Virus record (IMG/VR): IMGVR_UViG_3300045988_095776 | Span: 15,135-79,134 of that record | Strand: one strand, 5' to 3' | DNA from: a virus | DNA: 64,000 nt | In this document: one piece after another, positions 3,191 through 58,768 of the stretch | How positions within the stretch are numbered: the stretch's first letter is position 1 | How the letters are laid out: each line of letters starts with the position of its first letter | Translations under genes and position numbers: made by a program | The notes under the pieces: model-generated | Database searches by the model: none | The model's input: the letters and a program-made list of their open reading frames with translations, nothing else | What the model was told of the DNA's origin: nothing

Positions 3191-3513
3191 TAACCAGTCA
3201 GCGGCGTGATAAATGCATAGCTGTTGATTTAGTCGCCTATATCGAAACCGACAAGTAGGATATGGGTTATAAGTGATGAAATAAGCTGGAAAGCCGTTTG
3301 CAACGGTAATCAGAGAGTGAAGGCTATGGGCAAAAACATAGTCAACCGCAACGCGTAGGAAGTGAACCTGTCGCTGAGATGCTACAGAATATAATCTTCC
3401 CAAGAGGCATCACTATCGGTCGGTACGGGTGCAGAACCCGTGGTAAAAAGGTACGCTGGACTGCATTATAATGATGCAGAAGTAAGGATAAAAAGCCTTA
3501 CGATAACAATTCG
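3191..3513 (+). ncRNA. putative ORF-less group I self-splicing intron in the tape measure gene
   Basis: - The 5' exon ends in U3190, which can pair with G3232 in a 7-bp P1 (3187-3193 with 3229-3235).
- 3223-3230 is complementary to 3' exon 3514-3521 (P10).
- The last intron nucleotide is G3513.
- Several stable hairpins are present.
- Exon ligation restores the reading frame. Confidence 0.65.
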
Positions 3514-6500: not shown

Positions 6501-6619
6501 GATCTTCGCCAGAGTACATCATGAACAGCATCAAGGTCAACGAACGTGAGCTGGCACGAATTGTCACAAAAGCACAAAGCAATACAGAATATCGTATGAA
6601 TCCATCACCGGCATATTGA
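3514..6619 (+). CDS. tape measure protein, exon 2
   Basis: Resumes with (I)NQPANQIRMLQSNFASLGRTIGSLFIPILRTVLPYINA, a tape-measure core motif. A transmembrane-like Gly/Ala segment and a long helical region follow. The track start GTG 3440 lies in the intron and has no RBS. Confidence 0.8.
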
Positions 6620-19759: not shown

Positions 19760-20452
19760 ATGAACAAATTACAGATTTTCAATTCAGAGGAGTTCGGAGA
19801 AATTCGAACAGTGACTATTGACAATGAACCTTGGTTCGTTGGAATTGACGTAGCGAAATCATTAGGATATGCAAATCCTAAGAATGCAGTTCCCAAACAT
19901 GTGAGTGAAGAAGATAAGCTGGGTACCCAAATTGAGTACGCAGGTCAGAGACGTGAAGTGACGGTAATCAACGAATCCGGATTATATGCATTAATATTCG
20001 GAAGTAAGCTCGATTCGGCTAAGAGATTCAAACATTGGGTAACGGCAGAGGTTCTCCCTTCCATCCGCAAGACGGGTTCATACCAGAAACCGATGACCGT
20101 AGCAGAACAGATTCAGTTACTGGCTCAGGGCAATCAAGACCATGAGGAGCGAATCGAGAAACTTGAGAACACAATGACCATTGATTACGGTCAGCAGAAG
20201 TACATCAGTGATCTGGTTTCCAAGGTGGTAATCGAGGTATTAGGTGGAAAGAAATCCAATGCTTATGATGAGATTGGAAAGAAAGTATTTGCAGAATGCA
20301 ACAGGGATGTAAAGACTTACTTCGATGTAAATGCCAGAAATAACATTCCCAAACTAAGGTATCAGGAAGCAGTGGAATACATCAAAGAGTGGACACCTTG
20401 TACCAATACCAAAATGATGATTCGTGACTGTAATGCTCAGATGACAATGTAG
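19760..20452 (+). CDS. antirepressor (Bro-N / Ant family)
   Basis: N-terminus LQIFNSEEFGEIRTVTIDNEPWFVGIDVAKSLGY is typical of the Bro-N domain. Confidence 0.8.
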   Translation: MNKLQIFNSEEFGEIRTVTIDNEPWFVGIDVAKSLGYANPKNAVPKHVSEEDKLGTQIEYAGQRREVTVINESGLYALIFGSKLDSAKRFKHWVTAEVLPSIRKTGSYQKPMTVAEQIQLLAQGNQDHEERIEKLENTMTIDYGQQKYISDLVSKVVIEVLGGKKSNAYDEIGKKVFAECNRDVKTYFDVNARNNIPKLRYQEAVEYIKEWTPCTNTKMMIRDCNAQMTM

Positions 20453-20463
20453 GAGGTGGGAAT

Positions 20464-20739
20464 GTGAAAACACCTAAAATTGAAATCCGCCAGGTGGACG
20501 GCGAAAAAGGAATCTTCACAGAAATCCTTGTGGACGGTCATAAACTTGAGGGAGTAAGAAGCTTCGAACTGAAGCAGGAGGTTGGAAACTCAATACCGAT
20601 ACTTTCCGTTGATTTGAACGCTTTAGATTTATCAACAGATTTAAAGCTGTTACAGGTGAACCAGAAAGGTATCGGAGAAATCGAAAGCATTAAATTCAAG
20701 GGACAGGAAATGCCAGTTGAGTTTGGCACAAAAGAATAG
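20464..20739 (+). CDS. hypothetical protein
   Basis: GTG start after AGGAGGTG. Confidence 0.45.
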   Translation: MKTPKIEIRQVDGEKGIFTEILVDGHKLEGVRSFELKQEVGNSIPILSVDLNALDLSTDLKLLQVNQKGIGEIESIKFKGQEMPVEFGTKE

Positions 20740-20767
20740 GCTCCCATATTTCAGAGAGCCGTGAGGA

Positions 20768-20959
20768 TTACTTACTGAGATTTTGCAGAATTGAACAATC
20801 GCTGGCACGATTACAACAACCTGTAAAACCGGCATATTTACATTTTAATCTTCCGTTAATAGATTTTGGACTCTTATCTTCTAAAGAAGAAACGGAAATT
20901 TGAGTAAATTCGACAAAATAATCCTTGTTCTGTTTTACACAAAAACCAGAATACACCAT
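20768..20959 (-). CDS. small Cys-rich protein on the opposite strand (moron-like)
   Basis: 63 aa with a strong minus-strand RBS (GGAAGGAGGTG). Hairpin terminator at 20743-20764. Confidence 0.5.
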   Translation of the reverse strand: MVYSGFCVKQNKDYFVEFTQISVSSLEDKSPKSINGRLKCKYAGFTGCCNRASDCSILQNLSK

Positions 20960-21295
20960 TAAACAAACACCTCCTTCCCATAAGGAAAGTATACCACATA
21001 AAAATGGAGGTAACCAAAATTAAAAACTTCATATATGAATTATTTTTCAAGAAAAGATATTCGGTAATTGACATAGTGAGCATTTGCGTTGGAATTGTTA
21101 TCGGAATCCATATTTTCGATAGTCTTGTTTAAAAAAATGTTTAGGGATGGTTTCACAGGATTGATGAAAACCATCAATATGCGGTAATAATTGCAAAATT
21201 TTATCTTTTTCATTTTAATCGGCATGGCGGTGCCTGTAAGGACATTATAAGGAGATGCAGAATAAAACTCAATATCATATCGGAGGGACATAAAA

Positions 21296-21469
21296 ATGGC
21301 AAAATCATTAATCCTGTCAGCTCTGATCGGCGGTATGTCACCGTACCTGCCGTTCTGGAGATTTGACAGTGCATCACAGCCGGTTGCAGTAGCAATCGCA
21401 ATATTCGCATTATCATTCGTGGTTATTTACCCGGATGAAATTAAAAGAATCGGAGGAAAAGAAAGATGA
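21296..21469 (+). CDS. small membrane protein (57 aa)
   Basis: GGAGGGAC RBS and two hydrophobic segments. Stop overlaps the next ATG. Confidence 0.4.
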   Translation: MAKSLILSALIGGMSPYLPFWRFDSASQPVAVAIAIFALSFVVIYPDEIKRIGGKER

Positions 21470-21738
21470 TTGAGACAAAAATGGGGGAAATCACACTTAA
21501 AGGCAGTAAAGCAGAATTAATAGCTGACTTAGCTGTTATCGTTCGTGGAATCAAAGAAACCATTATGGAAGATGGCAAAAAAACAGAGGAATCTGTGAAG
21601 CAGGAGATTGACGAAGCGGTCAAAATCGGGCTGATGAACGAAGAAGAATTTAAAACTATTCAAAAAGAAAAAATCAAAGAAGTTGTAAAAACATTATTTG
21701 GCGAATTACTTGGAGGGCTTTTCGATGAAGATAAATGA
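21466..21738 (+). CDS. hypothetical protein
   Basis: 90 aa, translationally coupled. Confidence 0.5.
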   Translation: MIETKMGEITLKGSKAELIADLAVIVRGIKETIMEDGKKTEESVKQEIDEAVKIGLMNEEEFKTIQKEKIKEVVKTLFGELLGGLFDEDK

Positions 21739-22021
21739 TTTTGATAAGACCGTAGATGAGTTGTATCAGTTGTGCCGGAGAGTTCAGAAAGAAACCGGCA
21801 GAACGGTAGCATTTCATTTTGCAAACTACAAGATCGGATGCAGCTTGCACATCAACATATATAAGAAAGAATCCTTAAGAGAATTTGATATGTACAGCAT
21901 TGCAGAGGGCGGTTATCAGCAGGAAGAGAATGTAAAGAAAGTAACTGACCATTTAAACAAAATTTTGATGGACAACAAATGTCCGTATTGTGAGGGAGAT
22001 TGCAATGGAGAAAGAAAATAA
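21725..22021 (+). CDS. hypothetical protein
   Basis: ATG 21725 is preferred over the track TTG 21698. C-terminal CPYCEGDC motif. Confidence 0.5.
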   Translation: MKINDFDKTVDELYQLCRRVQKETGRTVAFHFANYKIGCSLHINIYKKESLREFDMYSIAEGGYQQEENVKKVTDHLNKILMDNKCPYCEGDCNGERK

Positions 22022-22178
22022 GATGGATTTCAGAGCAGAGACCGTAGCCGAAGAGTATGCAGAGCTGGTAGGCAGATTAAAGGCATTTGAAGCGTATCTC
22101 AGAACAGAGGAAGGCGCCTTAGTTGAGAAGAAAGTGTGCTTCGCAATGCTGGGCCTCTGCACCAAAGAAAGCGAATAA
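22005..22178 (+). CDS. hypothetical protein
   Basis: ATG 7 nt after GAGGGAG. Confidence 0.4.
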   Translation: MEKENKMDFRAETVAEEYAELVGRLKAFEAYLRTEEGALVEKKVCFAMLGLCTKESE

Positions 22179-22309
22179 AAGTTGGCTCCACAGGTACCGA
22201 CATACCACATGGAGCCACGTATCTAACTTAATTTGGCTAAGTTAAATACAGGGCTAGTATAACACACCTTCCTGTATTTATCAATAAATAATTTAGGAGG
22301 GCATTTTTT

Positions 22310-22504
22310 ATGTCAAAAACACACACATCCAACGAACAGAAACCACTTGCAAGCGAGATTATTTGTGATCTGGAAGCAGAAAACGCAAAACTCGAAGCAA
22401 GAAACAAGAAACTCAGTAACATTGTTTTAAAGCAGGCAGCAGTTCTTGTGGAGACATTATTGCTGTTGAATGAAGAAGGTGATTTAGGAAATGAAAATTC
22501 GTGA
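22310..22504 (+). CDS. hypothetical coiled-coil protein
   Basis: 64 aa with an AGGAGG RBS. Confidence 0.45.
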   Translation: MSKTHTSNEQKPLASEIICDLEAENAKLEARNKKLSNIVLKQAAVLVETLLLLNEEGDLGNENS

Positions 22505-23108
22505 CGAAAACCAGGTGCTTTTATCTGGTGATATCCCGGCGGGATTCGTATTCTCACATGAAGAATACGGCGGAACCAAGATGTACGAGGGAAGAATGAC
22601 AATATTCAGAAAGAATGCATCCTATGACATTCTTCCAATTATTGTACCAGAATACATGATTTCAAGAGAAACAGAGTTGATTGCTAGTGTATATGGTGAA
22701 ATGCGAAGTCGTACAGTCCGGGAAGATGGTAAAAAAAGCCTTGCGGCGTATGTAAGAGCAATGAATATTCAGTATCTTGAAAGACTAGAAGAACACGACG
22801 CAAACGAAGTTTATCTGACCGGTTACCTGATTAAAAAGCCGACAATAAAGATGATTGGCACAAACAACGACAGGAAGCTGGCAAGAATACTTCTGGCAGT
22901 AAACAGAAAGAAGAAAGCCGGATATACCAGATCAGACGCAATCAGTTGTTTATGCTGGGAGGAAAACGCAGATGCCGTAGAAAATCTGAAAAAGGGAACA
23001 AAAATCAAACTCCGTGGAAGATTCCAAAGCCGTGAACTGTGGTCTGATCAGAGTCAATCATGGGTAACAGTGTTGGAGGTATCAGTAAAAAGATTGGAGA
23101 TTTTGTAA
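22491..23108 (+). CDS. OB-fold ssDNA-binding-like protein
   Basis: Pattern LTGYLIKKP...LAVNRK...ISCLCWEENA...KGTKIKLRGRFQSRE resembles an SSB OB fold. Sits in the recombination module. Confidence 0.5.
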   Translation: MKIRDENQVLLSGDIPAGFVFSHEEYGGTKMYEGRMTIFRKNASYDILPIIVPEYMISRETELIASVYGEMRSRTVREDGKKSLAAYVRAMNIQYLERLEEHDANEVYLTGYLIKKPTIKMIGTNNDRKLARILLAVNRKKKAGYTRSDAISCLCWEENADAVENLKKGTKIKLRGRFQSRELWSDQSQSWVTVLEVSVKRLEIL

Positions 23109-23109
23109 T

Positions 23110-25137
23110 ATGAAGAAAATCGAAGTAAGAGAAATTAGATTGACCGATTTTAAAGGCCAGTCAGAAAAGAAAATAGAGTTCGGACACAGAACAGTCGTTT
23201 CCGGTAAGAACGGATGCGGAAAAACCACACTGGCAGACGCTTTTATGTGGGTGTTCTGTGACAAGGACTACAGCTTAAAAAGTAACCCGGATATCAGACC
23301 GGATGATGGTAGAGAATGTCTCCCAAGAGTTGACATTGACCTTTTGATTGACGGAAAACCAGTAAGCGTTTCTAAGTACCAGAAACGCACAGAAAGCAAG
23401 CCAAAGGACGGAAAACCGGGCAAGGTTGCATTATCCAACAAGTACGAAATCAACGGCGTTCCGAAAGCTGAAAGAGATTTTAAAGCCGATTTGAAAGAAC
23501 GCGGATTTGATTTTGATAATTTCCTGAGGCTGTCTCACATGGAAATCTTCACAGACTTGAAAGATGCAGATGCCAGAAAGATTCTGTTTTCCATGTCAGA
23601 CGGTGCCGGGAAATCAGATTTAGAGATTGCCAAGACAGTTCCAGATTGTGCCGAGTTAGTACCACTTCTGGAAACCTACAAAGCAGACGAAATTAAGGCC
23701 ATGAACAGTGCAACACTGAAAAAGGCAGAGGAACAGTTGAAAGCCATTCCAAACCAGATTATCGGTATGGAGCAGGCGAAAGTCGATGCTGATACCGCCG
23801 AATTGGAATTGCAGAAGAATGCCTTGCAGGAACAGATTTCAGACCTCGAAAAGCAGATTGCGCAGGCAGGGAACGAGAAAGCTGGAGAGATTAAAGCGGA
23901 ACTGGCAGGGTTAAGAACCAAACTGTTAGAGACGGAATCAAAGGCTAAAGCGAACTTGTTAGAGCAGAAATCATCGGTTTGCAATAAAGTTAGCAGTTTT
24001 GAATTAGACAGGAATATCAAAACATCAGAGTTGAACAGAAAGACTTCTACATTGGAAAGCCTGAGAGCGCAGAAAAAAGATCTTCTTGAAAAATTACAGA
24101 ACGCCAGAACACAGTATCCCAAAATCAAAGACACAGAATGGGACAACACAGTTCTGGAAAGCATTAAATCCGAGGCATTCAAGGACGCAGATACCATTTG
24201 CCCGACTTGTGGTCATAGTCTTCCACCAGAGCAGATTGAGCAGTTAAAGAGCAGATTTGAACAGAAGAAGCAGGAAAGAATCAATCAGCAGTTAAAAGCC
24301 AAGGAAGAATGGGAACAGGACAAGAAACGCAAACTTGATGAAGTTATTCAGGTTGGAAACAAAGCGTCTGCCGATATGAAAGAAGCGCATAAGCAAGAAG
24401 AAACCCTCACATCTGAGATTTCCAAACTGACAGATGAATTAGAGCAGATCAAAACTTCTCTGGATGCAGAAAACAAAAATTTGGAATCCATACCGAAAGA
24501 GCCAGATTTCTCAGAAAACGCCGAATATCAGCAAATTCTTGTATCAATCAAAGAGAAAGAGCAGGAACTTAATTCTCTGGACGATGGCGAAGAAGCAAAG
24601 AAACAGCTTTCAGAGCAGTTATCCGGCAAGAAACAGGAATTGGAAGCAGTTAATCAGAAAATCGGAGAAGCCAACAACAACGTCCGAATTGACGAGCAGA
24701 TTGCGGAACTGGAAGCCAGCAGGACGGAATATTCTCAGAAGAAAGCTGATGCACAGATGATTCTGGATGAACTGAAATCACTGAGTATGGCAAAAAATAC
24801 AGCCCTTGAAGATACGGTGAACCAGTATTTTGACGGTGTTAAGGTGAAACTGTTCGATACGCAGAAAAACGGCGAAGTCGTAGATGCTTGCATCTGGTAC
24901 GTGCAGGACAAGGATGGTAACTGGAAGAAATTAATCGGGAATGCCAATACAGCCCTGATGATGAAAGGCAAAATTGCCATCATGTACGGCTTACAGAAGT
25001 TTTACGGCGTGAGTTATCCAATATTCGTAGACTGCGCAGCAGAACTGGATAACATCAGTCTGGCAGGAATTAAGGCAGATGCGCAGTTAATTTTCTTGAA
25101 AGTTGCTGAATGGGATATGAAGGTAGCGGAGATTTGA
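23110..25137 (+). CDS. SMC/SbcC/RecN-like AAA ATPase with long coiled coil
   Basis: Walker A GKNGCGKTT, a Zn-hook-like CPTCGH in a coiled-coil middle, and a C-terminal signature region. Confidence 0.8.
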   Translation: MKKIEVREIRLTDFKGQSEKKIEFGHRTVVSGKNGCGKTTLADAFMWVFCDKDYSLKSNPDIRPDDGRECLPRVDIDLLIDGKPVSVSKYQKRTESKPKDGKPGKVALSNKYEINGVPKAERDFKADLKERGFDFDNFLRLSHMEIFTDLKDADARKILFSMSDGAGKSDLEIAKTVPDCAELVPLLETYKADEIKAMNSATLKKAEEQLKAIPNQIIGMEQAKVDADTAELELQKNALQEQISDLEKQIAQAGNEKAGEIKAELAGLRTKLLETESKAKANLLEQKSSVCNKVSSFELDRNIKTSELNRKTSTLESLRAQKKDLLEKLQNARTQYPKIKDTEWDNTVLESIKSEAFKDADTICPTCGHSLPPEQIEQLKSRFEQKKQERINQQLKAKEEWEQDKKRKLDEVIQVGNKASADMKEAHKQEETLTSEISKLTDELEQIKTSLDAENKNLESIPKEPDFSENAEYQQILVSIKEKEQELNSLDDGEEAKKQLSEQLSGKKQELEAVNQKIGEANNNVRIDEQIAELEASRTEYSQKKADAQMILDELKSLSMAKNTALEDTVNQYFDGVKVKLFDTQKNGEVVDACIWYVQDKDGNWKKLIGNANTALMMKGKIAIMYGLQKFYGVSYPIFVDCAAELDNISLAGIKADAQLIFLKVAEWDMKVAEI

Positions 25138-25485
25138 GAAAAGTGGAACAGCTAGGAACTTGTTTGGCGACAGCCTAGCTGCTCCACACAAAATATAGAG
25201 CAAACTATATTTGCTAATAGCATAACAGATAATTTTAGCTTAATCAAGCTACAGGTGATTTTGCACCTGCAAAGTGAGGAACGTGTTAACTCACTAGAAC
25301 CTATATAAATTTAATATTTGAGGTTTGACAAGCCTATGAATTTACATGGGTACAAAACTTCCATTCTTTTTTATCGCTAAACTCCGGTGGTTTGAAACCC
25401 TACAAAACAGCACAGGTACGAAACGATGCAATCACGCAAATAGCGTGTTAGCAAATATATAAAAATATAGAAAAGGAGAATTGTT

Positions 25486-26433
25486 ATGGCAAATAAAACA
25501 CAGTTAGCAACAGCAGGAGAACAGCAGGCGGCAATCGTAATCAACAACTCATTCATTGATGGATTGGTCAAGCAGCTTGAAAAAAAATGTGAATATGGTC
25601 TTTCGTTCCCAAAAGACTACAACCTCAGTAATGCACTCATGGGGGCATATCTGACTCTGAAAGAGACAAAAGACAGAAACAATAAGCCAATTCTGGAATC
25701 TTGCACAGCTACAAGCATTGCAAACAGCCTTATGAACATGGCAACGCTCGGACTTTCAGTTCAGAAAAAACAGGGTTATTTCATTGCCTATTCCGGTCAG
25801 TGCCAGTTCCAGAGGTCTTACTTCGGAAACATTACAATCGCCAGAAGATATGGAATGAAAGATATTCATGCTGAGATCATCTACGATGGCGACAAGTTCA
25901 AATATCATATCGAAGATGGAAACAAGGTTCTGAATTCTCATGAACAGGATTTTATGAACATTGACAACGATAAGATTCTTGGGGCATATGCAGTAGTACT
26001 GATGGAAGATGGAACAAAACATCTAGAAGTAATGAACATAAAGCAGATCAAACAGGCTTGGTCACAGGGTTATGGTTACAAGGAAAACGGCAATGGAACA
26101 CATCAGAAATTTACTGACCAGATGGCAAAGAAAACAGTTATCAATCGTGCATTAAAGCAGATTATCAATAGTCATGGTGATATTTTTATTCAGGAAGTCG
26201 AGGAAGCTACAGAAGAAATTCCAAAGCAGGACATTATTGAGCATGAAGTCGCTTATGAAATCGAGCAGAACGCCAATGCAGAAGAATTTATCCCAGATGA
26301 GCCAGTGGCAATCGAAGAGCAGCCGAAACAGCCAACAGTCGCAGAAGTTGTAAAGACTGCCGAGAAAGAACCAGTTCCGGCAGCAGGTAAAGAACCAGAA
26401 ATTCCGGATTTTATGAAGCAGGAGGAGATGTGA
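25486..26433 (+). CDS. recT: RecT-family single-strand annealing protein
   Basis: Core SIANSLMNMATLGLSVQKKQGYFIAYSGQCQFQRSYFG, with an acidic C-terminal tail. Confidence 0.8.
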   Translation: MANKTQLATAGEQQAAIVINNSFIDGLVKQLEKKCEYGLSFPKDYNLSNALMGAYLTLKETKDRNNKPILESCTATSIANSLMNMATLGLSVQKKQGYFIAYSGQCQFQRSYFGNITIARRYGMKDIHAEIIYDGDKFKYHIEDGNKVLNSHEQDFMNIDNDKILGAYAVVLMEDGTKHLEVMNIKQIKQAWSQGYGYKENGNGTHQKFTDQMAKKTVINRALKQIINSHGDIFIQEVEEATEEIPKQDIIEHEVAYEIEQNANAEEFIPDEPVAIEEQPKQPTVAEVVKTAEKEPVPAAGKEPEIPDFMKQEEM

Positions 26434-26434
26434 T

Positions 26435-27040
26435 ATGAACAATAAAGAAATTTTACAGAAAGCAAAGGAACTGGTTGAACTTCTGGAACAACAGGAAGAA
26501 ACCGGAAAGGTTGAGTTGTCAACACTGAAACGAGGAGATGTGTTCCAGACTACAGGGAAACGCAAATACAAAGTGTTGCAGCAGTATGGCGATACAACGA
26601 AAATTATTTCGCTTGATCTGGTGAAAGAAAATGTAGAGTTTGGTGATACCTCAGATTACAAAACATCAAAGGTAAAGAAACTGTGTGACACTGAAATCCT
26701 GAAAGACTTCGAAGAAGAATTCGGGGCAGGAAATATCAAGACACACACAGCAGATATTATCACTGCGGATGGACAGAAAGTCGGAAATGTAAAATGCAAA
26801 ATCCGTCCAATTACGTTTGATGAAGCACGAGAATACACAGATATTACACCGAACAATGATCTGAACGACTGGTATTGGACGTTGTCGCCATGGTCGACAG
26901 AAGAGCACGGATGGAGTAGAAGCTTATCCGTTGTTTCCCCTTCGGGCTGTATCGGCGTCTACATTTACAGCAACGGTTATGGTGTTCGCCCAGTTTGTAT
27001 CTTAAAATCTAATATCTTTGTATCTAAGGTGGAGGAATGA
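26435..27040 (+). CDS. DGR target protein 1 (C-terminal variable region)
   Basis: 201 aa. The C-terminus WTLSPWS...VVSPSGCIGVYIYSNGYGVRPVCI contains VR1. Confidence 0.85.
   Translation: MNNKEILQKAKELVELLEQQEETGKVELSTLKRGDVFQTTGKRKYKVLQQYGDTTKIISLDLVKENVEFGDTSDYKTSKVKKLCDTEILKDFEEEFGAGNIKTHTADIITADGQKVGNVKCKIRPITFDEAREYTDITPNNDLNDWYWTLSPWSTEEHGWSRSLSVVSPSGCIGVYIYSNGYGVRPVCILKSNIFVSKVEE
26928..26992 (+). repeat. DGR variable region VR1
   Basis: 65 nt aligned to the TR. There are 11 mismatches, all at TR adenines. Confidence 0.9.
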
Positions 27041-27642
27041 TTATGAAGAAAAATCTGAAATATTTTGAGGATGAATTATCCAGATTAAGTAAAGAGTCCA
27101 CAGAATTCAAGAAAAAGCACATCGGAAAGCCGGAAATCGGAAAAGCTATTAAGCTTGCTGGCATGGAATGGCTGATTCTGGATAATACAGAAAAAGGATA
27201 TTTTGCCATTTTGAATGGATTTGATGGAAAAGAAAGAGCATTTGATTCAGATTCAAATAACTGGATTTCAAGTAAACTGAGAAATGAGTTAAATACTCGT
27301 TTTCTTAAAAAAATTACTGACGAGTTTGGAGAAGATGCAGTTATTGAGTTTGATCGAGATTTGCTTTCTTTGGACGGTCAGACAGAATATGGACATTGTA
27401 AAGATAAGATTTCGATTTTGACGATGGACGAATACCGAAAATACAGAAAATTCCTTCCAAATATGGGTAAATGGTGGTGGTTGCTTACTCCATGGAGTAC
27501 ACCAGCAAATGATTACAGTAAAACACTTACCGTTGTTTCCCCTTCGGGCTATGTCAACCGCAACTTTTGCAGCAGCGGAAGTGGTGTTCGCCCAGTTTGT
27601 ATCTTTTCTTCTTCAATCTTTGAATCGGGGAATGATGATTGA
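27037..27642 (+). CDS. DGR target protein 2 (paralog, C-terminal variable region)
   Basis: 201 aa. The C-terminus WLLTPWS...VVSPSGYVNRNFCSSGSGVRPVCI contains VR2. Confidence 0.85.
   Translation: MIMKKNLKYFEDELSRLSKESTEFKKKHIGKPEIGKAIKLAGMEWLILDNTEKGYFAILNGFDGKERAFDSDSNNWISSKLRNELNTRFLKKITDEFGEDAVIEFDRDLLSLDGQTEYGHCKDKISILTMDEYRKYRKFLPNMGKWWWLLTPWSTPANDYSKTLTVVSPSGYVNRNFCSSGSGVRPVCIFSSSIFESGNDD
27530..27594 (+). repeat. DGR variable region VR2
   Basis: 65 nt aligned to the TR. There are 10 mismatches, all at TR adenines. Confidence 0.9.
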
Positions 27643-28013
27643 TGGCAAATGAAGATTTAAAGGTAATAACAAAGGCCAAGCAGCTTGCAAAGCATACATT
27701 AATAGTTACGAGCAATGCCAGACGATACCCGAAAAAATATAGGTTTTCACTTGTAGATAAAATGCAAAATAAAGCATTGGAAATTTATGAGTCACTATTT
27801 GAAGCCAACCGAACTGATCTGAAAGATTATAAAGGAGAACGATTAGAACTTCAAACAAAAGCCATTACTCATTGTGATGAGTTGATGTACTTTATAGAAC
27901 TTTCATATGAATTGGGAATTATCAATTCCGGTGGAATGGAAGCATGGTCGCAAATGGTAAAAGATATAAAGTATATGACTATTTCATGGAGAACAAAAGA
28001 CAGAAAAAGATAA
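27642..28013 (+). CDS. avd: Avd-like accessory variability determinant (four-helix-bundle family)
   Basis: About 123 aa, basic and helical (AKHTLIVTSNARRYPKKYRFSLVDKMQNKALEIYE). Located between the targets and the TR/RT. Confidence 0.75.
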   Translation: MANEDLKVITKAKQLAKHTLIVTSNARRYPKKYRFSLVDKMQNKALEIYESLFEANRTDLKDYKGERLELQTKAITHCDELMYFIELSYELGIINSGGMEAWSQMVKDIKYMTISWRTKDRKR

Positions 28014-28039
28014 TTTTCACAGGTTATGCACTGCGAATA

Positions 28040-28104
28040 CCGTTGTTTCCCCTTCGGGCTATATCAACAACAACAATTACAACAACGAAAATGGTGTTCG
28101 CCCA
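28040..28104 (+). repeat. DGR template repeat (TR)
   Basis: Non-coding copy of the VRs between avd and the RT. The core is adenine-rich with AAC/AAT codons and would read GYINNNNYNNENGVRP. Confidence 0.9.
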
Positions 28105-28208
28105 ACATGGATCACATGCAGACAGAGTAAGCGTAAAGCTGAAATCAGAAAAGATACAAGCAAATGCATAACCTTTCCGCAATGGACAAACATAAAGGAA
28201 CAAAATAA

Positions 28209-29228
28209 ATGGATAAAGAAATTGTTGCAAATTTTGAGAATTTATATCGTTCTTACAAAAAGGTTAAGAGCGGTAAAAAATTTAATTCAGGTACTGCAAG
28301 ATTTTCTAATTTGTCTCTTGAAGGCATTCATCTCTTGAAGGAACAATTAGAAAGTCAAACGTATACCATAAATCCGTATAATAAATTTCAAATTCATGAG
28401 CCAAAAGAGCGAACGATAGAATCATGTGCATTTAAGGACAAAGTAGTGCAGAGATGCTTTTCTGATTACATTCTGACGCCGAATCTTGAAAATATCCTGA
28501 TTAAATGGAATACTGCCGGGCAGCAAGGAAAAGGGCAACATATGGCAATGGACGGGTTAAGAAATCAAATGTTGGATGTCTATAAAAGAAATGGAATGAA
28601 TAGTTGGATTGTAAAATGTGATATTCACAAATACTTTTATTGCATAGACCATGAAATCATGAAAGATGTTTTGGATTATTACTTTGATGATGATTTTACA
28701 GTCTGGTTGAACCATTTGTTTATCGATAGTACAGATAATCCGGGACTTCCATTAGGGAATCAGGTAAATCAGAAATACGCTCTTTTGTTGTTACATTCAT
28801 TGGATCAAATGATAACGATTGAATTTGGAAATCCATATTACGGACGATACAACGATGATTTTTATGTGATTTGTAAAACGAAAGAAGATGCCAGAGAAAT
28901 TCTCGAAGCAATCCGAATGATGATTGAAAGTCTTAGACTGGAATTAAACCCTAAATCACAAATTGTACCATTTCGCATGGGCTTGTGTTACCTGGGCTTT
29001 CATCATTACGTAACTGATGAAGGAAAATACATCAGAAAATTGCGTGGTGATAAGAAAAGAAAAACACAGAGAAAAATCCGAAGATGGGTACGGTCAGTGA
29101 ATGACGGGAAGATGTCGATAGAAAAATTCCATGAAAAATACGGAGCATGCAAGAATCATATGCTTCATGGAAATTGCACCAAACTATGTCATAGTATTGA
29201 TTTAGAAATTGAAAGGAGAATGAAATGA
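28209..29228 (+). CDS. DGR-type reverse transcriptase
   Basis: RT motifs: HEPKERTIESCAFKDKVVQ, GLPLGNQVNQ, and the catalytic RYNDDF (Asn where Met is usual). Confidence 0.85.
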   Translation: MDKEIVANFENLYRSYKKVKSGKKFNSGTARFSNLSLEGIHLLKEQLESQTYTINPYNKFQIHEPKERTIESCAFKDKVVQRCFSDYILTPNLENILIKWNTAGQQGKGQHMAMDGLRNQMLDVYKRNGMNSWIVKCDIHKYFYCIDHEIMKDVLDYYFDDDFTVWLNHLFIDSTDNPGLPLGNQVNQKYALLLLHSLDQMITIEFGNPYYGRYNDDFYVICKTKEDAREILEAIRMMIESLRLELNPKSQIVPFRMGLCYLGFHHYVTDEGKYIRKLRGDKKRKTQRKIRRWVRSVNDGKMSIEKFHEKYGACKNHMLHGNCTKLCHSIDLEIERRMK

Positions 29229-29566
29229 GATTAGTAAGTCAGAATGGGGAATTTGATGTCCCTTATGAAATCGCAGCATTAAGCAGAACTGGAAATATCA
29301 TAAAAGCATATGTGCCAATGGTAGGTGAAAAAGGAACAATTATGGCTCGTTATTCGACAAATGAAAAAGCCCAAAAAGCTATGAAAGCGTTGCATAAAGT
29401 GTATGCAGGAATGTTTTTTGCGCAAAACGTTGAAATGAGCGATGATGATTACGAGGAATTTATAAAAATGGCTGCAAGAGGTTTTGATGATTCAAAAACC
29501 ATGGTTAGCAGTCCAGATATGAAATTTGAACCAGCAAACATTGTATTCAGATTTCCAAAGGATTGA
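29225..29566 (+). CDS. hypothetical protein (paralog of 35891..36250)
   Basis: Shares YSTxEKxxKxxxxxxxxY and a C-terminal F(R/Q)(F/M)P(K/E)D with the later ORF. Confidence 0.5.
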   Translation: MRLVSQNGEFDVPYEIAALSRTGNIIKAYVPMVGEKGTIMARYSTNEKAQKAMKALHKVYAGMFFAQNVEMSDDDYEEFIKMAARGFDDSKTMVSSPDMKFEPANIVFRFPKD

Positions 29567-29578
29567 GAGGTATAAAAA

Positions 29579-30199
29579 ATGAGTTATAGCAGTTTATATG
29601 GAATTGATAAGGATTACAAAGGAGAGGTTATAGAATAGTTCGGAAATTCATGGCTGTTTGCACCTATTGTGTGGGATGTCTTGACAGAAAAATATATCCC
29701 GCCAAGTAAATTAATAAGTCATGGATTTAAGAGAAATATCATTCATGATACTTCTCTTTGGAACGAAGTAAACAATGAAATTAACAATTGTGACAATGCG
29801 GTAGACAGGATTTGCTGGGAATTTTCTGGACAACAGGTTTTCTTCACAAAAGATAAGAGCTGTGTGGCAAATGCAATAAGAGACTTTATTAAGCAAAATA
29901 ATAATTATTGCAGAGACACCGAAGATAATATCCCGGTGCTGGAAAGAGAGCACATCATTGAAAGATTCGAAAAGATTGCTAGTGAAATAGAACTGTTATC
30001 GGAAGATACACCGTATTTTGTAATGAAGAACACTTCTGTTGATGACAGCGTAGAAAGATGGTTTGAAAAATACGATGATAAGCAAGATGAATATATAGAA
30101 ACTGGTCTTAATCAGGTTGATGAATTTGTTACAGAATTTGTTGTGATCGAAGATGGGAAAATTGTGAATTTCATAAGCAATTTGGATTTTGAGTATTGA
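29579..30199 (+). pseudogene. hypothetical gene with an in-frame TAG at codon 20 (nonsense or read-through)
   Basis: ATG 29579 with a GAGAGG RBS; TAG at 29636-29638. The same frame continues to 30199. The track start GTG 29669 has no SD. Confidence 0.5.
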
Positions 30200-30214
30200 A
30201 AGTGAGGTGGCGAA

Positions 30215-30952
30215 ATGTTCATGAGAGTGATAAACACAGGCAGTCAACTCGGAAACTGCTATACGCTCAAGACCGAATCCGGCGAAATCTTGCTTTTGGA
30301 TTGTGGATGCAAGTATTCAGAGATTTTAAAAGGAATCTCTTACAGAATATCGGATGTTTCTGGCTGTCTGCTGACCCATGGACATGGGGATCACCTGAAA
30401 TCGTTCCAGAATCTTATGCAGTCCGGTATTCAGATTTACACCAATGACGAGACAGTTGAGAGTGTAAACACAATCTCTGGCGAGCTGATGATCGGCTTAC
30501 CAGAAAAGAAATCGAAGGACATAGGTTCATTTCGGGTAACGCCTTTCTACGTCCCACACGACAAGACACCAAACTTTGCATACCTGATATCTCACGAAGA
30601 ATGTGGACGACTGATATATGCGACAGACTTCTCATATTTGCCGTTCACATTCAAGAACATGAGAATAAATCACTTCCTTATAGAATGTAATCATCTTGAC
30701 GAATCGCCGGAGCAGGATTCATTTAAATTTGAACACTCCATCCGGGGGCACAGCAGCTTATCTACTGTAAAAGAGATTATCCGAGTGAACAATACCGCTT
30801 CGCTCAGGACTATAACGCTGTGCCACCTGTCAGAGGGATGGGGGAACCCGGAAGTGATGCAGAAAGAGATACAGGACGTTGTCGGAGATGATGTTCTGGT
30901 GCAGATCGCAAGACCGGGACTGGATGTTGATTTGAATTTATGTCCGTTTTGA
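30215..30952 (+). CDS. MBL-fold metallo-hydrolase
   Basis: Motif LLTHGHGDHLKS. Confidence 0.8.
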   Translation: MFMRVINTGSQLGNCYTLKTESGEILLLDCGCKYSEILKGISYRISDVSGCLLTHGHGDHLKSFQNLMQSGIQIYTNDETVESVNTISGELMIGLPEKKSKDIGSFRVTPFYVPHDKTPNFAYLISHEECGRLIYATDFSYLPFTFKNMRINHFLIECNHLDESPEQDSFKFEHSIRGHSSLSTVKEIIRVNNTASLRTITLCHLSEGWGNPEVMQKEIQDVVGDDVLVQIARPGLDVDLNLCPF

Positions 30953-30964
30953 AAGGAGAAAGAT

Positions 30965-31675
30965 ATGCCAAATCATGTAAGAAACATAATCAAAATGGAA
31001 GGAATAGAGAAACTTTCACTTATCAAAGTAAATGATGAGGGAGAAAAGTTCTTTGACTTTAATGAACTTATTCCGATGCCAGAAAGTTTAAATATGAAAT
31101 CTGGAACGATTGAAGAAATAGCGATTGAAGCAGCAATTAGAAAACTCGCCAAGAGAAGATACGATTTTCAAAGACCGTACGCAACGCCGGCAATGACCGA
31201 TAAAAAATATTGGGAAAGAGTTTCAAACTGCAGAGAAAGTCAAGACGAGTTAATAGAACTGGGGTTGCAATATATAACAAACAAAATTAAATACGGAGCA
31301 ACTACATGGTATGACTGGAATGTTGAAAACTGGGGCACAAAATGGAATTCATATGATAATGAAATCGAAAAGAATTGTGTGAAATTCAGTACAGCATGGT
31401 CAGACCCAACGCCTATAATTAGAAAACTTTCAGAAAAATATCCAGACGTAAAAGTTGAGCACTGGTGGGCTGATGAAGACATGGGGAATAATACGGGACA
31501 CAGAATTTTGATTGCAGGAAAAGAAATACAAAATGTGTCTGCCGAATACGCAAACGAATCACAGGATGCCTACGAATGTTATGTATTCTGCTGGGGAGAA
31601 TCCAAGTGTCTTCATAAAGATGAGAGTGGTAATTGGGTACGCAATGAATGCGAAGAATGCGACGGGTGTGATTAA
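30965..31675 (+). CDS. DUF1281 / Api92-like ferredoxin-fold protein
   Basis: N-terminus MPNHVRNIIKMEG and a later WGTKWNSYD resemble that family, from memory. Confidence 0.45.
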   Translation: MPNHVRNIIKMEGIEKLSLIKVNDEGEKFFDFNELIPMPESLNMKSGTIEEIAIEAAIRKLAKRRYDFQRPYATPAMTDKKYWERVSNCRESQDELIELGLQYITNKIKYGATTWYDWNVENWGTKWNSYDNEIEKNCVKFSTAWSDPTPIIRKLSEKYPDVKVEHWWADEDMGNNTGHRILIAGKEIQNVSAEYANESQDAYECYVFCWGESKCLHKDESGNWVRNECEECDGCD

Positions 31676-31689
31676 TAAAAAAGCACCGA

Positions 31690-31842
31690 CTATTTATCGG
31701 CACTTTTTACAAAATCTTGGAGAACAGTAATGACCAGATTATTAAAACTCCTGTTCTCCTGCTTGGCAATTTGCTCAAGTTGTTCTTTAAGCTGTATCGG
31801 GAACGTGATGTTAGTTCTGGTCTTATCAGACTTGACGGTCAT
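31690..31842 (-). CDS. ribbon-helix-helix (CopG/Arc-like) DNA-binding protein, 50 aa
   Basis: MTVKSDKTRTNITFPIQLKEQLEQIAKQENRSFNNLVITVLQDFV. Strong RBS GGAGGGA. Not in the ORF track because it is under 60 aa. Confidence 0.65.
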   Translation of the reverse strand: MTVKSDKTRTNITFPIQLKEQLEQIAKQENRSFNNLVITVLQDFVKSADK

Positions 31843-31900
31843 GTGAAATCCCTCCCTTGTTTTTAGAACATTGTAGCATTTTTGCCTGTCGGTGTCAATT

Positions 31901-31967
31901 AGGTATCAAAGTGGTATCATTTTTATCTTGCAATATAGGTATCAAAATGGTATCATAATGGTATCAG
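31901..31967. repeat. GGTATCA iterons (five copies; two 20-nt direct repeats)
   Basis: AGGTATCAAAGTGGTATCAT at 31901-31920 and AGGTATCAAAATGGTATCAT at 31937-31956, plus AATGGTATCAG at 31957-31967. Confidence 0.8.
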
Positions 31968-31980
31968 AGATACACCGAGA

Positions 31981-32598
31981 ATGAATCGAGGTGATAAGTT
32001 TTTGAATAGTAACTATAAAAATTTTGTAAAAGCCAAGGCGATTGAAACTGAGAACCGTAAGAGATGGCTGAAAGTCGACCCGCATCTGAACGACAATCCT
32101 GGAATCTACATTTTGACAAGAATTGATGAAGATGGTTTTAAGTTTGGGTATGCAGGCCAGGCAAAGAAACTAATTACCAGATTATGTCAACATAGTGCAG
32201 GGCATCAACAACACATTGATCTTAGCTTGAAAAAACATGGATTATATTCAGAAAAAAATCCATATGGTTGGCGTGTAGTACATACTAATTGTCCAGAATC
32301 AGAACTTGACGAAAAGGAACAGTATTATATCAGATGGCTTGCAGATCAAGGGTATCAACTTAGAAACAAGACTGGTGGTTCTCAGGGAGCAGGCAAGAAA
32401 CAGATTGATGAGTACAGACCGGCAAAAGGTTATTATGATGGTTTAAATCAGGGAAAGAAATCACTCGCCAGAGAACTGTCGCACATCATAGATACACACT
32501 TGCAAGTTTCACTGAAACCAGAAAAGCAGAGCAATAAAGTATCAATCCGGGCTTTTGAAAAGTTTCAGAACTTGATTGATGAGAAAACATACGAATAA
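31981..32598 (+). CDS. GIY-YIG family nuclease (free-standing homing-endonuclease-like)
   Basis: GIYILTR...FGYAGQAKKLITRLCQH...EQYYIRWLADQGYQLRNKTGG. Confidence 0.7.
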   Translation: MNRGDKFLNSNYKNFVKAKAIETENRKRWLKVDPHLNDNPGIYILTRIDEDGFKFGYAGQAKKLITRLCQHSAGHQQHIDLSLKKHGLYSEKNPYGWRVVHTNCPESELDEKEQYYIRWLADQGYQLRNKTGGSQGAGKKQIDEYRPAKGYYDGLNQGKKSLARELSHIIDTHLQVSLKPEKQSNKVSIRAFEKFQNLIDEKTYE

Positions 32599-32655
32599 AA
32601 AATGAAAGGAGCTTGCCTTCATGTGACGTAAGGGTGCACCGGGCTTCTTTGAAAT

Positions 32656-33489
32656 ATGAAATTAAAATGTGAAATATACAGAGACTCAATGCAAAATTAC
32701 AAGAAATATGCAATTCCAAGAGCACAGCTTGTTATAGCTGATGTTCCGTATAATGTAGCGAATAATTTTTACGGGAGCAACCCTATGTGGTATGTAGGTG
32801 GGGATAATAAAAATGGCGAAAGTAAACTAGCAGGAAAAGCTGCCTTTAATTCAGATTTTAATTTTAACTTATATGAATACTTTCACTTTTGTTCAAGAAT
32901 GTTAAAAAAAGAAGATACAACACCTGTGCCAAGAGGAAGAAGTAGCAATTCTCCATGCATGATTGTATTTTGCTCGTTTGAACAAACACAAACATTGATT
33001 AAAGCTGCTGAAAAACATGGTTTTGTACATTATATCCCACTTGTTTTCATAAAAAATTACAGCCCTCAAGTATTAAAAGCGAATATGCGTGTAGTTGGAG
33101 CTACGGAGTACGCTTTATTGTTTTATAGAGACAGGCTTCCTAAGTTTAGGAACGGCGTTCAGACTGATGAAAACGGAAAAACAATCAGAGGTACAGGACA
33201 CATGGTTTTTAATTGGTTTGAATGGGAGAAAGATGGAAAAGATATTCCTAAAATTCATCCGGCACAAAAGCCGGTCAAACTTTTAAAAAGATTGATTGAA
33301 ACGTTTACTGATCCCGGAGATGTAGTAATAGACCCATGTTGCGGAAGCGGGACAACGTTAAGAGCTGCACACGAAATAGGAAGAAATGCTTTCGGCTTTG
33401 AAATTGATAGAAATTTCTTTAAGAGGGCAAAAGAAGAAATGCTTGTTTTTGAGGAAAACAGTCAGATAAGCATAGAAGATTTTTTATAA
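32656..33489 (+). CDS. DNA methyltransferase (N6-A/N4-C, beta class)
   Basis: Catalytic IADVPYNV near the N-terminus and the SAM motif VIDPCCGSGTTLRAA near the C-terminus. Confidence 0.8.
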   Translation: MKLKCEIYRDSMQNYKKYAIPRAQLVIADVPYNVANNFYGSNPMWYVGGDNKNGESKLAGKAAFNSDFNFNLYEYFHFCSRMLKKEDTTPVPRGRSSNSPCMIVFCSFEQTQTLIKAAEKHGFVHYIPLVFIKNYSPQVLKANMRVVGATEYALLFYRDRLPKFRNGVQTDENGKTIRGTGHMVFNWFEWEKDGKDIPKIHPAQKPVKLLKRLIETFTDPGDVVIDPCCGSGTTLRAAHEIGRNAFGFEIDRNFFKRAKEEMLVFEENSQISIEDFL

Positions 33490-42383: not shown

Positions 42384-44054
42384 ATGAACATATATTATGC
42401 AAGGGAAAGATTAAGGACAGGATCTATTTTTGACCTAAAGTTAAAAGTGGCATATTACGCAAGAGTTAGCACGGAAAAAGTGGAGCAGCAGGTATCTATC
42501 AAGCACCAGCAAGAATATTACGAGGAATTTATTCGTTCAAATCAGAATTGGACTTTTTCGGGAGCATATATTGACGATGGAATATCTGGAATCCATGCCG
42601 AAAAGAGAGAGGAATTTCAGAATATGATTCGAGATGCAAAGCTCGGAAGAGTAGATATGATCATCACGAAAGAGATTTCCAGATTTGCCAGAAACACGCT
42701 TGACAGCATTCAATATACCAGAGAACTACTGTCCTATGGAGTTTGTGTATGGTTTCAAAACGACGGGATTAATACCATTGACGAGGACAGCGAATTACGT
42801 TTGACAATTATGGCAGGCGTTGCGCAAGATGAACTTCGAAAACTTTCGAGCCGTATCAAATTCGGACATGCAAGGTCAATTCAGAACGGAGTTGTGCTTG
42901 GAAATCGAATATACGGATATCACAAGAAAGACGGGAAACTCACTATAGTTCCTGAAGAAGCTGAAATGATTAGGATGATATTCAGAGATTACGCATCGGG
43001 AACCATGTCTACCCCTAAATTAGAAAAGAAATTATGGGACATGGGGTACAGGAACTTCAAGGGTGGAAAAATAAACAGAGATGTTATCAGGAATATTATC
43101 AAAAACCCCAAATATAAAGGATATTTTTGCGGTGGAAAAGTGAAGATTGTCGATATGTTTACCAAAAAGCAAGAATTCCTGCCAGAATCCAAATGGGTAA
43201 TATTTAAGGATGACGGGAGCCGGGTACCTCAAATCATAGACGAAGAAACATGGGAAAAGGCGAATGAGTATATGAAGAAGAGAAGTGAAGCTATAAAATC
43301 TCATCGAACTTCGTTTAAAAACGGAAATCTCTTCACGGGTAAAATTTTTTGCGCTAATGATGGCGCTCCGTACTGGATGAAGCAGCATTATGTACGCGGA
43401 AAAGAAGATGTGAGATGGGTATGCAGTTACAAAATCAAAAATGGAGCGGATTCTTGCAGTTCACACGGTATCAGAGAGTCTGATTTAAAGAAAGTGGTCG
43501 CAAGCCTTATCAACGAATCTTCATGTAATATAGATGAAGTTATCAAGGAATACTTAAATATAATAAGAAAAGTTATTAATAATAAGCCGGATACGGGCAT
43601 TGAAAAAGAAAGGCTTCAAAACCAGATTGATGCAATAAAAAAGAAGAAAGAAAAAATACTGGAATATAACCTTAATGGAAATATTCCGGACGAAGAGTTT
43701 ATATCAAGGAATAAGGACTACACAAAACAAATCATTGATTTGGAGATGGAAATTTCGAAATTAGTCCCGGAAGATGTCGAACTACAAATAACAGAAAAAC
43801 AACTTTCGAAAATCACAGAGGAACTAAAAAGTTTTAAAGAAGTAAAAGAAGAAGATATAAATCGCCAAATTATTGATAAGCTTTTTGACAAAATAGTTGT
43901 GTCGTTGTCGGCGGATAAACAAACCGTGTGCAAATTCTATTTAAGCACTGGATGCTTGAAAATACGGGATTTGGGTGGGGTTGTTCTGAATACATGTTAT
44001 TTAACAATACGTAAGAACGACACAAGGCATTTTATAGGCGAACTTGTAGCTTAA
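42384..44054 (+). CDS. large serine recombinase (probable phage integrase)
   Basis: Resolvase catalytic domain (VAYYARVSTEKVEQQ...ITKEISRFARNT), a recombinase domain, a Zn ribbon and a coiled coil. 556 aa. Confidence 0.85.
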   Translation: MNIYYARERLRTGSIFDLKLKVAYYARVSTEKVEQQVSIKHQQEYYEEFIRSNQNWTFSGAYIDDGISGIHAEKREEFQNMIRDAKLGRVDMIITKEISRFARNTLDSIQYTRELLSYGVCVWFQNDGINTIDEDSELRLTIMAGVAQDELRKLSSRIKFGHARSIQNGVVLGNRIYGYHKKDGKLTIVPEEAEMIRMIFRDYASGTMSTPKLEKKLWDMGYRNFKGGKINRDVIRNIIKNPKYKGYFCGGKVKIVDMFTKKQEFLPESKWVIFKDDGSRVPQIIDEETWEKANEYMKKRSEAIKSHRTSFKNGNLFTGKIFCANDGAPYWMKQHYVRGKEDVRWVCSYKIKNGADSCSSHGIRESDLKKVVASLINESSCNIDEVIKEYLNIIRKVINNKPDTGIEKERLQNQIDAIKKKKEKILEYNLNGNIPDEEFISRNKDYTKQIIDLEMEISKLVPEDVELQITEKQLSKITEELKSFKEVKEEDINRQIIDKLFDKIVVSLSADKQTVCKFYLSTGCLKIRDLGGVVLNTCYLTIRKNDTRHFIGELVA

Positions 44055-53992: not shown

Positions 53993-54005
53993 TATTAAGA
54001 ATTAT

Positions 54006-58737: not shown

Positions 58738-58768
58738 ACCAGTCAGAGAGCCAGAAAGGAGTGCCACT

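Follow-up and report, generated by a model that had tools for sequence, protein, structure and literature searches.

We analyzed a window of 64,000 nucleotides (nt) of viral DNA (IMG/VR virus record IMGVR_UViG_3300045988_095776, positions 15,135 to 79,134 of that record), in which a cluster of genes and repeats on the + strand has the make-up of a diversity-generating retroelement (DGR). Target gene 1 (26435-27040, +) begins 1 nt past the stop codon of recT and encodes a protein of 201 amino acids (aa) with an N-terminal helix and a DUF6273 domain. Target gene 2 (27037-27642, +) encodes a paralogue, also of 201 aa, and shares an ATGA overlap with target gene 1 and a TGATG overlap with avd. The accessory protein Avd (27642-28013, +) has 123 aa counted from the ATG at 27642, while the open reading frame (ORF) finder begins it at TTG 27639. 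A non-coding template repeat (TR) follows, and then the reverse transcriptase (RT) gene (28209-29228, +; 339 aa). Start and stop codons lie 1 nt apart or overlap at the recT/target 1, target 1/target 2, target 2/avd and RT/next ORF junctions. The initial annotation had described two 201-aa paralogous targets between recT and avd, with Avd and RT completing the cassette; the ORFs, the 35% identity between the two targets and matches to phrog_3206 and phrog_1423 confirmed this.

Ungapped alignment and a repeat finder placed the TR at 28040-28104 (+, 65 nt), with homology to the second variable repeat (VR) beginning at 28038. VR1 (26928-26992, +) codes for the patch C-I-G-V-Y-I-Y-S-N-G-Y, flanked by VVSPSG and GVRP, and VR2 (27530-27594, +) codes for the variable patch Y-V-N-R-N-F-C-S-S-G-S. 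The repeat finder independently returned one three-copy family of 76 nt (26926-27001, 27528-27603 and 28038-28113). Realignment over 65 nt reproduced exactly the coordinates and counts first reported: the TR differs from VR1 at 11 positions and from VR2 at 10, and all 21 mismatches (21/21) fall at TR adenines, leaving none at non-A positions in the core. Adenines account for 20 of the 65 nt of the TR, 19 of them within 11 AAC/AAT-type codons, and simple arithmetic puts the probability of 21/21 mismatches falling at A by random placement at ~(20/65)^21, or about 2e-11. Read in the target frame the TR gives TVVSPSG-YINNNNYNNEN-GVRP, which bears out the AAC/AAT-rich core and the translation initially given for it. 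Its adenine-bearing codons are AAC, AAT, TAT, TAC, ATC and GAA; codons derived from them cannot yield a stop, and some 5e10 different peptides could arise in each target (arithmetic). No further VR-like or remote VR copy was found in the window on either strand when mismatches at A were allowed.

The 3' ends of the repeats differ in another manner. Both VRs carry CAGTTTGTATC where the TR has CAACATGGATC, with the differences at non-A positions, as had been proposed from the first reading of the sequence. The initiation of mutagenic homing (IMH) element of VR1 (26981-27001, +) consists of GC-rich GGTGTTCGCCCA, common to the TR, and then the VR-specific GTTTGTATC; the IMH of VR2 lies at 27583-27603 (+) and reads GGTGTTCGCCCAGTTTGTATC. 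After the common segment the TR has ACATGGATC, and its IMH* with a small hairpin (CATG-GATCA-CATG) occupies 28093-28118 (+; GGTGTTCGCCCAACATGGATC). This 3' difference between VR and TR is an IMH/IMH* pair.

A scan of IMG/VR with the RT gave 80 related loci with RT identities of 80-100%, mostly in human-gut viral contigs of 77-80 kb. Statistics were taken over the 76 loci in which a single TR could be recognised and one or more VRs were present, 140 VRs in all. Mismatches numbered 1455 at TR adenines and 98 at other bases; the changes at A sites were A>G 791, A>T 582 and A>C 82. The first three repeat positions, where the homology boundary varies, held 34 of the 98 non-A mismatches. Because a TR and the VRs of the same genome often disagree at the 5' end of the repeat (26928-26930 in the window; CCG, CTA or CCA), the transferred tract seems usually to stop inside the GC-rich TTGTTTCCCCTTCGGGC segment. 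TRs were conserved (24 variants) while VRs varied, and lineage-specific non-A changes of a TR recurred in the VRs of the same locus. Of 143 VR peptides 133 were distinct and none contained a stop, with enrichment of Tyr, Asn, Ser, Gly, Cys and Asp. The distinction between IMH and IMH* was kept in the 76 loci, with the VR-side sequence nearly invariant across the 140 VRs.

The relative with a 100% identical RT (L001) differed from the window at 26 positions over 4083 bp (26371-30453). Thirteen of these were in VR1 and 12 in VR2, all at TR-A positions, and the remaining one was an unrelated single nucleotide polymorphism (SNP) at 27098. Because 25/26 differences fall at TR-A positions of the VRs, both targets have been rewritten since a very recent common ancestor with L001. 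The initial annotation had named VR heterogeneity as a test of the element, and the comparison across the population (1455 vs 98 over 140 VRs; 25/26 vs L001) served in its place and was decisive. Alternatively, the cassette of the window could be a fossil whose VR differences are ancestral and which no longer operates; relatives with apparently disabled copies lend this some support (YNDY in the RT of L080, an A-poor TR core in L066 and a VR-type IMH on the TR of L015). However, all parts are intact in the window (full-length YNDD RT, Avd, A-rich TR, IMH/IMH* and RNA helices), and the nearest relative is identical over 4 kb save for one SNP and 25 TR-A positions in the VRs. As L001 is near-identical outside the VRs, diversification post-dates a very recent common ancestor, and we regard a fossil element as very improbable.

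Altered repeats were also seen in individual related loci. In L015 (IMG/VR UViG 2871018103_000001, 5832-5905) the IMH at the end of the TR is of the VR type (CCCAGTTTGTATC), two A>G changes lie just upstream (AAC AAC to AAC GGC) and the IMH* hairpin is lost; this looks like a TR turned recipient, a VR-to-TR conversion or an assembly chimera. The TR core of L066 (5832-5905) is the same as its own VR2 core and is adenine-poor, with IMH* and spacer retained, which reflects either a template 'frozen' through VR-to-TR conversion or an assembly error from collapsed repeats. L023 (557-2260) contains a 1112-bp tandem duplication with a hybrid repeat, in which the TR 5' flank and unmutated TR core are joined to a VR1-type IMH and the 3' end of target 1; unequal recombination involving TR and VR1 could have produced it, as could misassembly.

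Protein comparisons identified Avd through phrog_3206 ('Avd protein of DGR'; E 4.8e-24), with weak Pfam matches to bAvd and 23S_rRNA_IVP. The RT matched Pfam RVT_1 (E 9e-12) and phrog_1423 (E 1.5e-86) and was 25% identical to Brt from BPP-1, a Bordetella phage (E 1e-30). Among solved structures its best relative was 8ub7 at E 3e-25, while a group II RT reached 8e-12 and a retron RT 8e-11; the 8ub7 sequence and the product of the Bordetella phage Brt gene align to it alike. Affinity to retron or group II RTs, named initially as a result that would speak against a DGR, was thereby tested and the DGR RT found closest. A retron, group II or antiviral DRT enzyme beside repeats that are paralogous sequence under gene conversion could account for sub-threshold similarity of the RT to models of group II RT/maturase (103 bits), Drt3a and retrons, and for the label 'retron-type' on related RTs in some database records. 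These scores are far under the curated cut-offs (103 vs 300 bits for group II, 46 vs 200 for Drt3a and 33 vs 235 for the retron model St85), and we rejected all these identities. Moreover, an Rfam search of the locus found no group II intron and no other RNA family, and gene conversion explains neither the adenine-only mismatches, nor a third copy that is A-rich and non-coding, nor the presence of avd. This alternative is effectively refuted, with next to no probability left to it.

The RT carries the motifs noted at the outset, LGNQVNQ at residues 182-188 and catalytic YNDD at 214-217. We surveyed the 150 nearest representatives of 50%-identity clusters, 142 of which were scorable for SQ and 143 for YxDD. 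The DGR hallmark xSQ was present in 117/142 and NQ in 7/142; YMDD was present in 124/143 and YNDD in 1/143, a fragment from the window's own clade. YNDD and LGNQVN(Q/L) are invariant across the clade of 80-100% RT identity, save for the individual loci given below. RTs of a sister clade of prophages (described below) have YMDD or YVDD with AQ or GQ, and on this basis loss of the hallmark Ser is, by sequence comparison, a trait of the whole cassette family, while Asn in the catalytic box is clade-specific. YNDD is thus rare, in keeping with its listing as unusual in the initial annotation; for LGNQVNQ, listed beside it, the missing Ser proved common to the wider family. Natural adenine mutagenesis is evident in both the YNDD clade and the sister clade despite these motif changes. 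The substitution spectrum was A>G 54%, A>T 40% and A>C 6% in the window's clade and 45%, 44% and 11% in the YMDD sister clade, a difference that is small and confounded by selection, and we make no claim that YNDD is linked to it. Individual RTs depart further: in L080 (6001-7017) YNDY replaces YNDD, with one catalytic Asp lost, and in L046, L060 and L067 LGNQVNL replaces the NQ form, with the VRs of L046 and L060 still diversified.

RNA structure was assessed in an alignment reaching from the avd stop to the RT start (n = 14: the window, four lineages from IMG/VR and nine distant prophages). RNAalifold and pair counting gave 36 pairs, with 96% of cells paired and 17 pairs showing compensatory changes; none of 500 shuffles reached the observed values and no slid register came near them. 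A long-range duplex closes the TR, formed by the TR 5' flank (28021-28032, +; AGGTTATGCACT) and a strand in the spacer (28163-28174, +; AATGCATAACCT). It comprises 12 bp, 9 of them compensatory, with 97% of cells paired, and corresponds to the published 'cPRT Stop' duplex. The IMH* hairpin pairs 28106-28109 with 28115-28118 (4 bp), is present on the TR side only and changes from CATG/CATG to CCTG/CAGG to TCTG/CAGA. A spacer stem-loop 3' of the TR (28125-28146, core 28130-28140, +; GA..AGC-GTAAA-GCT..TC) covaries from AGC/GCT to GGC/GCC in 5/14 sequences and is a candidate Avd-binding element by comparison with published work (bioRxiv 10.1101/2023.10.23.563531). Adjacent to the duplex lies a further stem-loop (28176-28199, +), with TCCG-CAA-TGGA at 28176-28186 and then the A-rich run CAAACATAAAGG, in which 3/4 pairs are compensatory. 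Cryo-EM work on bRT-Avd-RNA described the same RNA elements in BPP-1 and 207 other DGRs (bioRxiv 10.1101/2023.10.23.563531); those matched here are the duplex between upstream and downstream strands, the adjacent stem-loop followed by adenosines and the spacer stem-loop. Because of this correspondence, the covarying elements support operation of the same cis-primed mechanism here.

Membership of both targets in one family was established by profile searches. Target 1 scored slightly under the Pfam DUF6273 cut-off of 23.5 bits (22.4 bits, E 1.2e-4) and target 2 over it (30.4 bits); both matched phrog_9958 (E 2.3e-25 and 6.7e-50, respectively), and DUF6273 (PF19789) was matched by 130/134 members of the target family. 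The VR codons correspond to residues ~172-182 of 201, near the C-terminus of the DUF6273 domain. A protein search gave 4364 homologues of target 2 that are ~90% identical throughout save for an 11-residue patch. The sole Hoc-like PHROG match of the targets spans the VR-proximal lectin segment. From sequence, neither a signal peptide nor a membrane segment was found in the target proteins. DUF6273 is a DGR target domain of phages of gut Firmicutes, reportedly C-type-lectin-like and with the VR on a surface hairpin (PMC10743442, PMC11792537, bioRxiv 10.1101/2024.10.15.618418). The C-type-lectin fold anticipated in the initial annotation is thus reported for the domain, and would extend to the targets through Pfam membership and this literature; our own structure models do not confirm it. 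Two proteins of about double length, P0271 (389 aa) and P0272 (380 aa), gave the best scores with the target profile (E 1.5e-157 and 5.5e-110) and are apparently fusions of target 1-like and target 2-like halves.

The prototype DGR of BPP-1 (mtd-avd-TR-brt) shares with the window the order target-avd-TR-RT, adenine-specific transfer from TR to VR, a GC-rich IMH that differs from the IMH* of the TR, a homologous RT, and an RNA duplex between upstream and downstream strands with spacer stem-loops. The two differ in the length of the TR (65-76 nt in the window, 134 nt in BPP-1) and in the number of targets (two in tandem versus one). The targets of the window are 201-aa DUF6273 proteins without detectable similarity to Mtd, the target in BPP-1, and their cassette lies in an early SSB/RecT operon, whereas that of BPP-1 adjoins tail-fibre genes. 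The RT of the window has YNDD and NQ where that of BPP-1 has YMDD and SQ.

Taken together, we have little doubt that the locus is a canonical, currently active DGR in a temperate, siphovirus-like human-gut phage, with a likely host in the Lachnospiraceae. This conclusion is carried by the repeat anatomy, the adenine specificity, recent activity on both targets, a DGR-type RT with Avd, and covarying RNA. Several results weigh against it. Avd scored 40 bits (E 3.5e-10) against NCBIfam DivGenRetAVD, where the cut-off is 80, and BLASTP detected no similarity between it and the Avd of BPP-1. In the RT, motif 4 does not fit [LIVM]GxxxSQ, reading LGNQVNQ with Asn for Ser and Gln retained, and the YxDD box carries Asn. 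No hairpin or cruciform better than shuffled sequence was found 3' of the VRs (z +1.36 and +0.16), unlike BPP-1. The evidence for activity is a comparison between genomes and not heterogeneity within a sample, and the DGR sits in an early replication/recombination operon with no tail module, unlike the classical receptor-binding picture. For the fold of the targets, an AlphaFold2 model of target 2 from a 134-sequence alignment reached a mean predicted local distance difference test score (pLDDT) of 66.6, with the VR-bearing residues 139-190 below 50 (a model from a shallow alignment of 23 sequences gave 38). A Foldseek search of the target model against the PDB and BFVD returned nothing at E <= 0.001, the target family profile matched no PDB sequence, and hhalign of the 134-sequence target profile with Mtd gave a probability of 0.1%, that is, no similarity. 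The pattern [LIVM]GxxxSQ is a hallmark used by DGR finders and stands outside the definition of a DGR, and Avd is common in DGRs but not universal.

By analogy with established DGR biology, reverse transcription would be cis-primed, homing IMH-directed and the variable patch engaged in C-lectin-like ligand binding. The interval between avd and the RT gene (28014-28208) would be transcribed and the transcript would fold into the 12-bp duplex between TR 5' flank and spacer, the IMH* hairpin and the two spacer stem-loops. RT and Avd would bind this folded RNA and copy the TR to cDNA, faithfully save opposite adenines. The cDNA would then replace VR1 and VR2, with the IMH (GGTGTTCGCCCAGTTTGTATC) marking the recipients and the IMH* of the TR (ending in CCCAACATGGATC) protecting the template. 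The expected outcome is randomisation of 11 codons (template Y-I-N-N-N-N-Y-N-N-E-N) near the DUF6273 C-terminus of both 201-aa paralogues. This DGR has three modest peculiarities: its small paralogous targets stand in tandem in an early-operon setting that is conserved, its TR is short and its RT has YNDD and NQ.

The window belongs to a temperate siphovirus-like phage with a GC content of 39%, and its structural and lysis genes include a tape measure, a 1637-aa tail protein, an endolysin, a large terminase and a portal. Upstream of target gene 1 lie genes for SSB (22491-23108, +; Pfam SSB), an SbcC-like AAA ATPase (23110-25137, +; Pfam AAA_15) and RecT (25486-26433, +; Pfam RecT), the last directly adjoining; PHROG 77 and 148 were also matched in this region (22491-26433). 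A Cro/CI-type helix-turn-helix repressor gene (18993-19337, -; Pfam HTH_3 and HTH_26) is divergent from the + strand early operon, with promoter-like sites at 19384-19412 (+) and 19517-19489 (-) and a Bro-N/ORF6C gene at 19760. Along the + strand the operon runs Bro/ORF6C, SSB, SbcC-like ATPase, RecT, the two targets, Avd, TR and RT, and 3' of the RT it goes on to genes for an MBL-fold protein, a GIY-YIG protein and a methylase. No terminator-like site was found on the + strand from 19087 to 33000, and promoter and terminator scans were otherwise uninformative. The placement in an 'early/recombination module' given by the initial annotation is therefore accurate, as judged from the SSB-SbcC-RecT operon and the repressor.

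At the DNA level this lineage is absent from deposited phage genomes, as megablast of the cassette against INPHARED phages gave no match; the closest annotated RT was that of gut phage nd12 (38% aa identity). Scanning GTDB with the single RT sequence found no match, and scanning with an RT alignment found nine prophages in metagenome-assembled genomes (MAGs) of Lachnospiraceae, with RTs 57-60% identical. Their hosts are Tyzzerella, Agathobacter, Acetatifactor, Faecalimonas, Mediterraneibacter, Dorea and other Lachnospiraceae. Because these nine sister prophages lie in Lachnospiraceae MAGs, the host of the present phage is probably also a member of that family. All nine loci contain the cassette of target 1, target 2, Avd, TR and RT, with an Avd of 123 aa and adenine-biased TR/VR pairs, and in 9/9 the target 1 type ends in CILKSNIFVSKGE and the target 2 type in CIFSSSIFESEE. 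The upstream neighbors vary (ParB, DnaB-like helicase, replisome organiser, ERCC4 nuclease), and all are genes of replication or recombination.

Small DUF6273 targets have been described before. The gut phage DGRs nd4 and nd12 (Baykov et al. 2023, PMC10743442) each have two targets, tentaclin and tgt2; tgt2 carries its VR at the 3' end, within a DUF6273/C-lectin-like domain, and is 29-32% identical to the targets of the window over ~86-90% of their length (E 2e-20 and 6e-13). By tblastn, nd4/nd12 tgt2 and the small targets encoded by FP_Toutatis, Lelie and FP_Brigit were homologous to the targets of the window over 80-93% of their length, at 29-32% identity. The targets of nd4/nd12 differ from each other in architecture, tentaclin combining an N-terminal, VR-bearing C-lectin domain with one or more Ig-like domains and a C-terminal anchor motif, whereas both targets of the window are tgt2-like; these have 201 aa, no Ig domain and the VR near the C-terminus, which is not the architecture of Tentaclin. 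Whereas tgt2 lies ~10-13 kb from the RT in nd4/nd12, the targets of the window stand in tandem immediately upstream of avd, and no tentaclin is targeted. The small targets of the Faecalibacterium phages Lelie, CP11 and FP_Toutatis (PMC11792537; bioRxiv 10.1101/2024.10.15.618418) are, like those of the window, standalone DUF6273 proteins of ~200 aa with a C-terminal VR. Unlike the window, each of these phages has a single remote target (17 kb from the TR in Toutatis) together with a large Hoc-like/tentaclin target. The RT of these phages is only ~34% identical to that of the window, and their hosts are Oscillospiraceae, not Lachnospiraceae. The small DUF6273 targets of FP_Toutatis (gp24; 6013-6660 of L093) and Lelie (orf58; 5989-6636 of L094) lie outside the structural module, with genes for DNA methyltransferase, prohibitin, a transcriptional regulator, replication initiation and an antiterminator as neighbors. 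The small target class and its place outside tail modules are thus already known; the window departs from those phages in having two tgt2-like paralogues as its targets, set in tandem directly upstream of avd and with no tentaclin partner. Accordingly, small targets away from a tail module are less unusual than the initial annotation held, given nd4 and nd12 tgt2 and the small targets of Lelie, CP11 and Toutatis.

The location of the targets raises another interpretation, that the DGR is canonical but its small targets are early-expressed soluble binders and not receptor-binding proteins of the virion. Such proteins could possibly act inside the infected cell or lysogen, or once released, in counter-defence, host takeover or as a secreted lectin benefiting the lysogen. 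In its favor, the targets are translationally coupled to recT in an early operon downstream of a Cro/CI-type switch, within the stretch free of + strand terminator-like sites; the genes beside the cassettes of sister prophages encode ParB, a DnaB-like helicase, a replisome organiser and ERCC4; the small targets of FP_Toutatis and Lelie have genes for a methylase, replication initiation and an antiterminator around them; and a DUF6273 DGR target of Mushuvirus was found in the bacterial secretome during lysogeny (2026 preprint). However, gene position is weak evidence of function, the targets have no signal peptide or membrane segment, the N-terminal helix could serve to fix the protein to the virion, and a patch enriched in Tyr, Ser, Gly, Asn and Asp suits any binding site. 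In addition, every phage DGR target characterised by experiment is, as far as is known, a binding protein exposed at the surface. We consider soluble, early-expressed targets unlikely, although not negligibly so. A bolder proposal, that the small DUF6273 pair are early diversified binders in or from the infected cell or lysogen and/or that the placement of the cassette is functionally coupled to the annealing and replication genes, is more doubtful again. If coupling were true, integration of cDNA into the VRs would use the phage SSB and RecT at replication forks. Retrohoming efficiency has been found to follow the direction of replication (2026, PMC12875486), which would fit coupling to phage replication.

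Elsewhere in the window, a full-length ROOL RNA (Rfam RF03087; 55006-55549, 376.8 bits, E 1.2e-86) lies within a cluster of four tRNAs (Gln, Met, Met, Ser; region 54005-55634), with an RtcB-like RNA ligase ORF (58721-59971) downstream. Similarity to tape measure proteins is split between ORFs 1635-3209 and 3440-6619, both matching phrog_28918 and phrog_1535 at consecutive profile positions, a pattern that an interruption or frameshift of the gene, or an inserted element, could explain. A 258-aa tyrosine-recombinase-like ORF (13277-14053) lies between the tail genes and the endolysin, and a 556-aa large serine recombinase (42384-44054) in the replication region.

DGRs are common in gut phages, so that finding one is no surprise, and the value of the present one is as an unusually clean natural case, in which activity on both targets is visible from assemblies alone. 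At least one published DGR pipeline applies a repeat threshold of at least 90 nt (PMC11792537); the TR of 65-76 nt falls below this, and lineages of such DGRs may consequently be under-counted. The RT clade mutates adenines with YNDD and without the Ser of SQ, which bears on the residues needed for adenine mutagenesis. The layout of two small lectin-like targets in a replication/recombination operon recurs across Lachnospiraceae phages, and the lineage is abundant, at thousands of protein clusters, and so lends itself well to asking what small DUF6273 targets bind.

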